Position numbers: made by a program. Shown one piece after another: positions 39,001 to 42,000 of a stretch of 64,000 nt of DNA; within the stretch, counting starts at the first letter, position 1, and every line of letters starts with the position of its first letter. This DNA is from a bacterium (GTDB lineage Bacteria; SAR324; NAC60-12), in NCBI GenBank assembly GCA_965205865.1, contig CBDBHR010000030.1:448001-512000 (forward strand). The letters are read 5' to 3'.

Positions 39001-42000
39001 TGGATATTAACCATCATCGTCTATCTCGCAGTGCGCTTTATCCCCGGCAATATAGTAGACACCATGGTGGCTCAGATGGAATCGTGGCAGAATGTCAAGA
39101 TCGACCGCGAATCGCTTGAGCGTATGCTGGGACTGGACGTGCCTGTCTATGTGCAATATGGACGCTGGATAGGAGTGTTGCCGACTCCTGGCTGGCCTAC
39201 TGGTGAGTCCCACTTTAAAGGTCTCCTGCAAGGCACCTTTGGTGAATCCCTTCTTGGCGGTTGGTCGATAGAGGAGAGGCTCATCGGGAGATTGCCGGTC
39301 ACCCTCGAGCTTGGGGCCATGGCCATCGTCATCAGTCTCGTCATCGCCCTGCCCGTCGGTATCTACTCGGCGATTCGCCAGGATACCGCCACCGACTACG
39401 CAGGGCGCACCGTCGCCGTCATCGGTCTGGCAGCGCCGAACTTCTGGCTGGCCGTGATGGTCATGCTCTACCCGTCCATCTGGTGGGGCTGGTCGCCATC
39501 GTTGGAGCTGATCACATTCCAGGAAGACCCCCTGGGGAATCTCGGCATGTTCCTCATTCCGGCCGTAATTTTGGGGACGGGCATGGCGGCCGCCACCATG
39601 CGGATGATGCGCACCATGATGCTCGAGGTGCTCCGGCAGGACTATATCCGCACGGCCTGGGCCAAGGGGCTCAGGGAGCGGGTGATTATTATCGGACATG
39701 CCATCAAGAATGCATTCATCCCGGTAGTGACGCTCATTGGCCTGCAGCTCCCCCTCCTGATTGGGGGCGCCGTGATCATGGAAGAAATATTTACTCTACC
39801 GGGGATAGGTCGTATGTTTGTGGATGCCCTCAATAACAGAAACTACCCGGTAATTTCTGCAATAAACATGGTTTTTGCTATCGCGGTTTTGGGGATCAAT
39901 CTCATCATCGACCTGTTTTATGCTTTCCTGGACCCCAGGGTTCGGTATAAATGATTAGAGTTTTCAGTTTTCAGTTTTCAGCCTTGCTAATTTTATGCAG
40001 GATTTTCGAAATTTAAAAGTGTGGAAAAAATCCCATCTATTGACACTTAAAGTGTATCAATTTACTCAATTGTTTCCAGTGGAGGAACGCTATGGCTTAA
40101 CAAGTCAGATACGACGAGCTTCTATTTCTATCCCCACGAACATTGCTGAAGGATGTGGACGTGAAGGAAGTAAGGAATTATCTCGATTCTTGCAGATTGC
40201 TCTGGGCTCAGCGATGGAAGTAGAATATTTGATACTTTTTTGTAGGGATATAAAACTGTTCTCCGCAGAAATTTATGATTCATTGCAAAAAGAGGTTTCG
40301 GATATCAAGAAAATGTTAACTTCATTCATCAAGAAACTGAAAACAGAGAGTTGATAACTGAAAACTGAGAGCCGATAACTGAAAACTGACAGCTGAAAAC
40401 TGAAAACTTCAATAAAGTGCGGTATAAATAGATGAAGTCAAAATCATGAGCGACACCAAAGATATTCAACCCACAATCATTGAGCCCAAGCGACGAAGCC
40501 GGTTTGCTGATTTCTTTATCAGGCTGCTCAAGGAGAAGCCGTTGGGGACCTTCAGCGGGGTGATCGTCTTGATCTTTATGGTGGTGGCTATCTTTGCCGA
40601 TGAGTTGGCCCCTTATCCCTATAAGAAAATGCACATGGCCGATCGGCTGACTGGCCCCTCCGCTCAGTATCTGCTGGGCACCGACCATACGGGGCGTGAC
40701 TTGTTGAGCCGCCTGATCGTCGGGGCTCGGATTTCCTTAACCGTTGGTCTGGCCGCAACGGCGCTCAATGTCGTCGTCGCGCTCCTCATCGGCGGCATTT
40801 CGGGATTTATTGGAGGGAAATGGGACCTGGCGGTGCAGCGCTTCGTCGATGCCTGGATGGCCTTTCCGGGGCTGCTCTTGTTGTTGACCATCATGTCCAT
40901 CGTGGGTCAGGGGTTATTCCAGCTGATCGTGGTGCTGGGGATCACCGGAGGCATCAGTGGCTCAAGAGTCATCAGAAGCGCCGTGATCGCTATCAAAGAG
41001 AATGACTATTTTCTGGCAGCCCAAGCCGTGGGCACCCCCATGCGCCAAATCCTGAGCCGCCATGTGCTGCCCAATATTATGGCGCCGCTCATCATCATCT
41101 TCTCCATTAACATCGGCGGGGTCATCATTGCCGAAGCCTCGCTGAGCTTCCTCGGATTCGGACTGCCAACCCAGATTCCCAGCTGGGGCGGGATGCTGAG
41201 CCGGGAAGGGCGCAAATTCATGGAGCAGGCGCCCTGGCTGGCACTCTGGCCGGGGATTTGCCTGACGATTGTCGTTTACTCCCTAAACATGTTCGGCGAT
41301 GCCATGCGGGACCTGCTCGATCCCCGACTGCGGGGCGGCCAAGGAAGTTATGGCACCGCGATAGTGAAACGCAAACGAGGATTCCTCTCTCGACTGATCT
41401 CCCCTTTCAACTGGTAAGCGGACAAAAGGAGCCTCTTCCAAAAGTATTTGCCTTGTTTTTTCTTCACGGATGGCATTTTGACGGGCTTGGTATAAGTGAT
41501 AATAGGCTTCTTTTTCAGAAAATCGTTCTAAGATTGCCATTGCTTGCCTCATTTCAGGGGTGTTGATAATTTCAGGTAATTCTCTCCAATTTTCGGCTTC
41601 TTTAAAAAAATACGTAACTATTCAGGTATCTTCAGAGAGCCCATCGATTTAAGCACGGATTTTGCAGGGTCGCTCTCGCGGAGGGTTCCCACACGATCGA
41701 TTAAACAATATCGTGGGAGGTCAACCCGGTCATCAAGGCCATCATTTGGCTTTCAGTGAATCGCCAGATCATGTGGAATTGTCAACACCTGTTAAGCCTG
41801 TGGAAAAGATTTATCCAAGGTGACGGTTGAGTCCACGCTTAAACGTCGACATCAGCCAAGAAGCACTCGAGCTCTATCCTGCAAAACCTCAAAAAAAGAA
41901 ACGAGGACGCCCCAAACAGACGAAAGCAAAAAATTTACTCGATCATTTGATCCTCTATGAAAAGGAAAGCTTGTTATTCATGCATGACTTTCAAGTTCCT

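Follow-up and report, generated by a model that had tools for sequence, protein, structure and literature searches.

Intervening sequences (IVSs) in the 23S rRNA of Coxiella and Leptospira that carry an S23p ORF encode a protein of the PF05635 family, and their terminal inverted repeats close the loop that contains this ORF (PMC4990558). Such IVSs are sporadic and have been proposed to be mobile. The Coxiella IVS has tandem GACAGAT heptamers upstream of its ORF; they are noted for this one element and no generalisation is drawn from them (PMC4990558). By our own reading, GACAGAT taken as ATGACAG would fit the N5-AG phase described below. PF05635 is also said to resemble Avd (excerpt of PMC10053308), and the Avd of DGRs is a pentameric nucleic-acid-binding ring.

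Here, we describe a PF05635 gene from the window, i.e. the whole 64,000-nucleotide stretch of SAR324 DNA that was analysed, together with its relatives elsewhere. Like the IVS, the window unit ends in inverted repeats that could pair into a stem enclosing its ORF (Table 1). Unlike the IVS, which lies in the 23S rRNA gene, the window copy and the others examined occupy junctions between protein genes or the interior of ORFs; the window copy sits between oppB and oppC, and no rRNA match was found in 38000-42500. The first-pass annotation had placed the gene at this junction inside inverted heptamer arrays, and this is borne out, the two arms being complementary at 86% over 28 nt and at 100% over 17 nt. 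The right arm overlaps the last codons of the PF05635 gene.

Table 1. Features of the oppB-oppC junction, numbered from the first letter of the window
Feature	Position	Strand	Remarks
oppB-type ABC permease, host gene	38863..39954	+	BPD_transp_1 match; last codons supply direct-repeat copy 1
10-bp direct repeat copy 1, CGGTATAAAT	39943..39952	+	13 nt with one mismatch
Left arm, ATTAGAG + 3 x TTTTCAG	39954..39981	+	TRF period 7, 3.3 copies; N5-AG phase towards gene
Four-helix-bundle gene, 119 aa	39995..40354	+	Member of PF05635/TIGR02436; Avd-like fold; pI of 9.3 predicted
Right arm, about 11 degenerate heptamers, reverse complement of left arm	40334..40413	-	Period 7, about 10.7 copies at 40334..40408
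10-bp direct repeat copy 2, CGGTATAAAT	40420..40429	+	Within copy of oppB 3' end
oppC-type ABC permease, host gene	40446..41417	+	BPD_transp_1 and OppC_N matches

Outside both arms lies CGGTATAAAT, the last codons of oppB. The 10-bp direct repeat claimed earlier is real at this locus, but it is not a trait of the family: direct repeats of at least 8 bp were found at 4 of 130 loci against 1.3% in controls, those of at least 9 bp only at the window, and target-site duplication as a family trait was rejected on these counts. Direct repeats also occur at two gene-less alleles of the closed congeneric genome G001. This genome carries the orthologue of the window unit followed by a second unit with an internal deletion, and the 10-mer stands at each boundary of the two tandem units. 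It is possible that the repeat is a target duplication at this locus only.

The genome contains 117 oppB-oppC junctions (tblastn), many of them almost spacer-less among the matches listed, and five PF05635 genes, of which the window gene is the only one of the 7-mer type. Its reported uniqueness is upheld, as it alone among 4281 ORFs of 90-200 aa combines period-7 arms with an inverted match, and its doubled unit has no second occurrence in the genome. The SAR324 units GGTGAAA, CGTTGAC and GTTATCA/GATAACC, listed before, were seen again. Rfam gave no relevant match at the window locus or in 20 loci. One RNA-library contig covers 39940-40403 intact, although assembled contigs cannot show cleavage; no excision joint removing the unit was found among the listed joints of these contigs, which is weak evidence against splicing or excision.

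The window protein scores 132.9 bits against PF05635 (cut-off 33.8; E 6.5e-39) and 131.2 bits against TIGR02436 (cut-off 24). Its predicted model has four helices (pLDDT 96.9) and is matched most closely by Xcc0516 (2GSC, TM 0.93) and BT_0352 (2RLD), then by DGR Avd (PDB 4DWL, 8UB7; TM 0.80-0.84), which has the same four-helix fold. By analogy with the five chains each in 2GSC and 2RLD, the protein may form a pentameric ring. It scores below the cut-offs of the DGR Avd profiles NF033474 and PF22296 (24.3 vs 80 and 21.9 vs 40 bits), and whereas an RT adjoins avd in DGRs, none is adjacent here: RVT_1 matches lie on contig C30 at 424 kb and 879 kb, and the gene at 488 kb. Profile and structure searches gave no nuclease, recombinase or RT domain for the protein; profile searches gave no Y1_Tnp match for it and no transposase in the unit. 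A pI above 8 is seen in only 75 of 191 matched PF05635 segments. Wherever dS is measurable, the protein is under purifying selection, with dN/dS about 0.1: about 0.05-0.17 across within-type pairs with estimable dS, about 0.05-0.12 in Pedobacter pairs, and dN 0.025 with dS 0.199 between the window gene and its G001 orthologue. In archaea, PF05635 was matched in 6 of 101 genomes, with few usable loci.

Period-7 arrays had been claimed for the family at large, and a GTDB search whose query was another alignment of seven sequences, headed by a different subfamily, leads to the same view. At least 589 loci were matched, and the set consists of the 80 best, which are non-independent and include many Acidobacteriota. 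Of the 78 loci with enough flank, 62 have a period-7 array upstream and 68 have one downstream; 57 have both, compared with 0 of 74 windows 800 bp away. Inverted orientation likewise proved to be the rule. When the left flank was aligned locally to the reverse complement of the right flank (score at least 24), the arms matched at 66 of 78 loci, against 8 of 78 for direct matches, 2 of 74 displaced controls and 309 of 6006 mismatched locus pairs. For 49 of the 78 loci, the top match of the left flank was its own right flank.

A pooled, de-duplicated set of 191 loci, made up of SAR324 relatives, viral contigs, GTDB loci, archaea and 60 paralogues including distant subfamilies, gave inverted matches in 159 and direct matches in 25. 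Period 7 is not exclusive: both arms have period 7 in 132 loci, 8 in nine, 6 in two and 9 in two, and 46 loci failed periodicity on one or both arms. Inverted arms were present at 23 of 28 Desulfobaccia-class loci and at 7 of 8 plasmid loci, mostly cyanobacterial, that were picked from 40 records. Unlike PF05635 genes, true DGR-type avd genes had no inverted arms in any of seven cases (scores 12-14), an RT motif being near five of them. PF13366 (GxxExxY) genes have inverted 8-10 nt arms of their own in five of six cases. These results support a link between gene and arrays that is family-wide, inverted and specific. Both the link and the nesting described below are apparently unreported, none having been found in the literature searched, whose coverage is incomplete.

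The arms are polar, with N5-AG facing the gene, and AG is their best-kept position. Read towards the gene, 83 of 105 units have AG (14 have GG, four CG and four none of these), vs 14 of 105 on the opposite strand. In 156 imperfect single-AG arms, preselected for AG, the AG positions are kept at 0.89 and 0.94, compared with 0.72-0.84 elsewhere. The median arm has five in-phase units, and short runs also arise by chance.

According to the first-pass annotation, the unit varies by lineage; we find that it follows the protein subfamily and not the host lineage. Paralogues of <60% identity in the same genome have almost no arm words in common (mean cosine 0.02-0.06), so that their arms are as unlike as those of strangers. 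Protein pairs of >80% identity do have arm words in common, and the similarity climbs only above about 70% protein identity. On a FastTree tree of few columns, four proteins with 8-mer units, from SAR324 and Bacteroidota, lie nearest to one another and three 6-mer proteins form one branch, while the other 8- and 9-mer cases are scattered. Unit and protein travel together, and the two arms of a locus match each other despite fast turnover. Linkage alone can account for part of the similarity between unit and protein; the joint change of both arms is beyond what linkage explains.

It is quite probable that gene and arms belong together as a single unit, subject to gain and loss. Mobile behaviour had been proposed for them, and at fixed junctions we observe repeated gain, loss and replacement, as well as gene-less arm pairs. 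At a Pedobacter junction, the best-scoring 30 of 61 genomes, a choice biased towards filled alleles, comprise 15 alleles with the gene, 14 without it and one truncated; by eye, four of the 14 gene-less alleles retain arm pairs. The 15 filled alleles represent three protein types, with a mean identity of 45-55% between types and a unit of its own for each. Placed on a tree of the neighbouring host gene (29 rows, one of them poorly aligned; 14 of its 26 branches unresolved), the states change 12 times, against a minimum of three and no less often than shuffled labels. Recombination among alleles could be part of this scatter. The opp paralogues of G000 and G001 present a series that runs from empty junctions through gene-less arms between a duplicated 8-9-mer and a collapsed form to the full cassette. 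For a phage junction we found two filled copies only and no empty alleles.

The highest copy number is of another kind. G001 has 87 PF05635 matches, nearly all of the 6-mer type in a 570-bp shell, and this shell is represented by 97 end motifs, tandem dimers and deletion forms. Its hairpin ends are IS200-like by our reading of their architecture. A Y1 transposase that works in trans is the simplest account of this burst, the only one of near-identical copies; no autonomous Y1 transposase with the shell ends was found among 30 of 35 Y1 loci. In the dN/dS analysis, shell copies compared between two species gave 0.09 and 0.9. Because the gene is here carried in an IS200-like shell, the case is no proof of array-driven mobility.

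Whole cassettes also lie inside coding genes. Four are in PglX ORFs (L105, L113, L118 and L208; three recognised by NF033452, and L113 by homology to those three), and others are in an N6/N4 methyltransferase (L044), an error-prone DNA polymerase (L124) and a restriction helicase (L314). The cassette survives in these hosts with their frame open: the host frame is stop-free through the cassette in the -1 frame, and the inner gene is intact. By comparison, the -1 frame has 4.8 stops on average in 139 genes and six in the window copy. As the nested cases were ascertained by their open frame, frame-breaking insertions fall outside the sample. L117 and L121 were considered as such insertions and rejected, split domains not being supported. 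A histidine kinase (L063) has a truncated nested copy, and in L526 the host frame is preserved and the inner gene contains a stop. Between L118 and L208, the inner gene has a dN of 0.147 and a dS of 0.88, and selection is therefore on the inner gene and not on the shadow peptide; given the open host frames, splicing is unnecessary.

A profile built from six shadow peptides, mostly of methyltransferase cases, retrieved 30 long proteins and 443 clusters at 50% identity, the protein-only matches being known from protein sequence alone. In 66 of the best 150 clusters the shadow peptide is internal, in most with arm-derived peptides on both sides. Pfam assigns these 66 hosts to 30 proteins of DNA-methyltransferase type, three histidine kinases, two inteins, one DNA polymerase III alpha, one protein kinase and three others; 26 are without a match, and many of these resemble PglX or Mod fragments by eye. 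PglX carries insertions at two distinct regions.

The explanation that we favour overall, at not quite an even chance, is a selfish cassette whose ring reads AG every 7 nt in its own arms on ssDNA. Such a cassette would be about 450-650 bp long and consist of an Avd-fold ring gene between two inverted polar arrays that form its ends. As to binding, oligomer state and catalytic partner, we infer that the ring would recognise AG at 7-nt intervals on single-stranded nucleic acid, with about one unit per subunit, the median arm having five, and would clamp the two arms into a stem whose loop contains the gene, thereby promoting copying into new junctions by repair and recombination enzymes of the host or a partner. 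Copying is assigned to such enzymes because the protein has no recognisable catalytic domain, and the step is placed on ssDNA, not RNA, because the arms have no strand-specific G.U bias; arm-arm mismatches are G.U in 203 and A.C in 217 cases, without G.U excess on the mRNA strand, and no RNA-stem signature emerged from them. The cassette would occupy cheap sites, namely operon junctions, RNase III-trimmed 23S rRNA IVSs and in-frame protein positions, and would probably rely on host transcription; collapsed gene-less pairs may be its REPIN-like derivatives. Counting against this explanation are the lack of a nuclease, recombinase or RT domain, the lack of a general target duplication, the abundance of gene-less arrays, the IS200-like shell around the one burst, the minority of basic segments, and the possible part of linkage and of recombination among alleles in the patterns above. 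Alternatively, the ring might bind its own transcript at the arm stem and recruit an RT in trans, of group II intron or DGR type, as a retro-mobile parasite of which the 23S rRNA IVS would be the RNase III-released RNA form. The fold in common with Avd suits this RNA route, and so does the Avd pentamer, which binds an RNA element and is needed by its RT (10.1101/2023.10.23.563531, available part), as do the Coxiella heptamers at the RNase III-cut terminal stem (PMC4990558, available part). The RNA fold of the window unit pairs its two arms (z -2.75), and a rough count of ORFs has both neighbours co-oriented at 93 of 176 loci. We nevertheless consider the RNA route unlikely, given the mRNA strand without G.U bias, the armless DGR avd genes and the genomes G066 and G057, where RVT_1 is unmatched in spite of 13 and 10 copies. 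An RT is present in the other three of these five genomes, a co-occurrence that is uninformative.

Arrays without the gene bear on two further readings. In our genome there are 53 period-7 tracts, one at the window gene and many in opp leaders; 22 solo TTCCCAG arrays have the same polarity, many of them in opp operon leaders, and none of the 22 has an inverted partner within 1 kb. Viral and metagenome scans gave 83 GGGAATC arrays, one of which borders a PF05635 gene in the arrangement expected, and gene-less GGGAATC pairs of the same polarity, with the partner downstream in 15 of 69 and upstream in 1 of 68. In a further search, the repeat was found in 0 of 301 genomes, and an order-level search gave PF05635 in 3 of 81. 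The gene had been described as tied to a repeat class, and the link holds family-wide and specifically, but most heptamer arrays have no such gene nearby. The arrays might accordingly be an independent repeat class that spreads through slippage, gene conversion or some other enzyme, with the gene as a passenger trapped between two arms and kept for its benefit to the host; they would then be STRR-like, STRR being the name for heptamer-type repeats of cyanobacteria. That gene-less arrays far exceed gene-flanking ones, that gene-less pairs keep the polarity, that PF13366 genes have arms of their own and that Xanthomonas has 70-75 inverted GGGAATC pairs (PMC4692102, in the part available) all argue for independence. 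It is improbable in our judgement when set against a link that spans the family and several phyla and is lacking in the other ORFs of the genome, a separate unit for each paralogue, and a doubled window unit that occurs nowhere else. AG-phased arrays are moreover found in 11 of 12 relatives with the gene vs 11 of 28 without it (p 0.004), a comparison in which the kin are non-independent, the arrays are partly the gene's own arms and one weak genome was left out; one gene-less relative has 781 AG-phased array matches. The remaining reading is a regulatory module modelled on TRAP, an RNA-binding ring protein: a ring on periodic AG in host mRNA that tunes the processing or translation of operons and spreads passively by homologous recombination between them. 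Periodic AG conservation, the ring fold, the operon-junction positions, purifying selection and the 22 solo arrays are all in keeping with regulation, yet we regard it as very doubtful, as the many unrelated coding-gene sites, the IS200-like shell and the exchangeable types at one junction fit a parasite better. Expression of the Coxiella protein, furthermore, left E. coli growth unchanged (PMC4990558, available part).

The selfish cassette, on the evidence of its junctions and hosts, points to an undescribed kind of selfish DNA without a recognisable transposase. A wider and more tentative proposal, which we hold to be possible though somewhat doubtful, is that PF05635 as a whole might represent widespread transposase-less selfish elements, in which an Avd-fold ring reads a periodic AG code in the tandem repeats at its own ends, spreads itself and gene-less pairs, and colonises coding genes as an inner gene in another frame. 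Each member of this large family without a function gains a predicted cognate ligand, its own flanking unit, and the predicted binding is directly testable with cognate and non-cognate arms. The cassette may connect three issues: why bacteria have an excess of 7-nt repeats, how ORF-bearing 23S IVSs arose and what DGR Avd descends from. The wider proposal, if true, would explain the heptamer excess, assign the 23S IVS protein a function and offer DGR Avd a possible origin, and PF13366 genes, with arms of 8-10 nt, would represent a parallel system. Each nested copy forms with its host a natural pair of overlapping genes, about 135 codons in length; the hosts are BREX and restriction-modification enzymes, kinases, inteins and an error-prone polymerase. 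Such copies will confuse annotation and may alter defence enzymes.

Among the known systems, RAYT-REP (the REPtron) is alike in its small gene with inverted repeats, its gene-less pairs and, probably, its read-through expression, but RAYT, an HUH tyrosine transposase, works on palindromic hairpins, whereas the cassette has tandem 7-nt arrays and no Y1 domain (PMC3733652, as far as available). Ssn-NTS/SRM is likewise a single-domain protein flanked by a cognate repeat family across phyla, with repeats on both sides in 42% of cases compared with 57 of 78 for PF05635; Ssn, however, is a GIY-YIG ssDNA nuclease with hairpins of 20-50 nt, and PF05635 has no nuclease match (PMC11893778, as far as available). 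The analogy drawn in the first-pass annotation thus extends to anatomy and stops at catalysis, those enzymes being nucleases. Because the catalytic hallmarks are absent, the cassette is not a member of the REPtrons or of SRM-ssn-SRM despite its like anatomy. Classical IS elements and MITEs involve a transposase and a target duplication of fixed length; the cassette has no recognisable transposase and no general target duplication.

The heptamer repeats of Xanthomonas (GGGAATC) and Nostoc (GGGGAYT) are closer in their repeats, with period 7, an asymmetry of G-rich and C-rich strands, inverted pairs and a place just past the stop codon; the available part of the source names no protein partner for them (PMC4692102), whereas in PF05635 each arm pair is tied to one subfamily. 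Rickettsia palindromic elements (RPEs), as summarised in the available part of PMC3733652, are also repeat-borne inserts in frame inside protein genes. They are short palindromes without a gene of their own, while the cassette brings a whole second gene in another frame and under purifying selection. The ORF-bearing 23S IVS, in turn, appears to be one insertion site of a wider class of cassettes, and there is a fair chance that the cassette forms a class of its own among the repeat-flanked small-gene elements.

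In G001, a closed congeneric genome, the PF05635 (four-helix-bundle, Avd-like) gene with hexamer flanks is carried genome-wide in a 570-bp element with hairpin ends that we read as IS200-like (L062, L064-L067, L507-L522), and this element accounts for most of the 87 PF05635 matches there. Four matches in our own genome (GCA_965205865.1) lie in the same element (L002-L005). Its variants include tandem dimers, internal deletions and shells without the gene. No matching transposase was found at the 30 of 35 Y1 loci checked for the same ends.

Arrays also occur without the gene. Dozens of solo CCCAGTT-type arrays stand in opp operon leaders of our own genome (e.g. 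C10:2880, C23:130802 and C25:148638), directly 3' of a TTGACA-like promoter motif and with no inverted partner there; their degenerate units retain AG every 7 nt, and one array has ~39 units. A 12-Mb relative, G006, holds 781 heptamer matches, AG-phased, and no PF05635 match. Our genome has at least 117 oppB-oppC pairs. Inserts of 90-640 bp, hairpins or repeats that belong to several further families, also occur at the junctions of these pairs.

Arm-bearing cassettes, in which inverted arrays enclose the gene, lie within cas operons of cyanobacterial plasmids (L333, L335), so PF05635 matches that adjoin defence genes may have arrived by insertion instead of being components. At six loci (L156, L191, L201, L049, L175, L281), one flank holds an additional inverted pair, which may reflect stacked or repeated insertions; as a result, the flanks match in direct orientation too.

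Cassette sites on plasmids, and further features of the window
Feature	Location	Loci
Cassettes in cas operons	cas10-cmr3; cas6-cas4	L333, L335
PDDEXK_2 (Rpn-type) gene	window 34732-35613	
Tandem array of three 79-bp units, upstream of oppA	window 36242-36465	
Perfect 92-bp duplication	window 20505-20684	

Within host proteins, the shadow-frame peptide (the stretch read through a nested cassette in the -1 frame) falls inside intein splicing domains in P0145 and P0151, at roughly the position that homing endonucleases usually occupy in inteins. Short array-derived peptides (VGSEKWE type) are present in PglX at a separate site where the nested gene is absent (P0005, P0019-P0028 and others), which suggests gene-less arm pairs in frame.

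PF13366 (GxxExxY) genes carry inverted arrays of 8-10 nt units on both flanks at five of six loci (L336-L341) and likely form a parallel gene-repeat system; the PF13366 protein, unlike that of the PF05635 cassette, belongs to a nuclease family.
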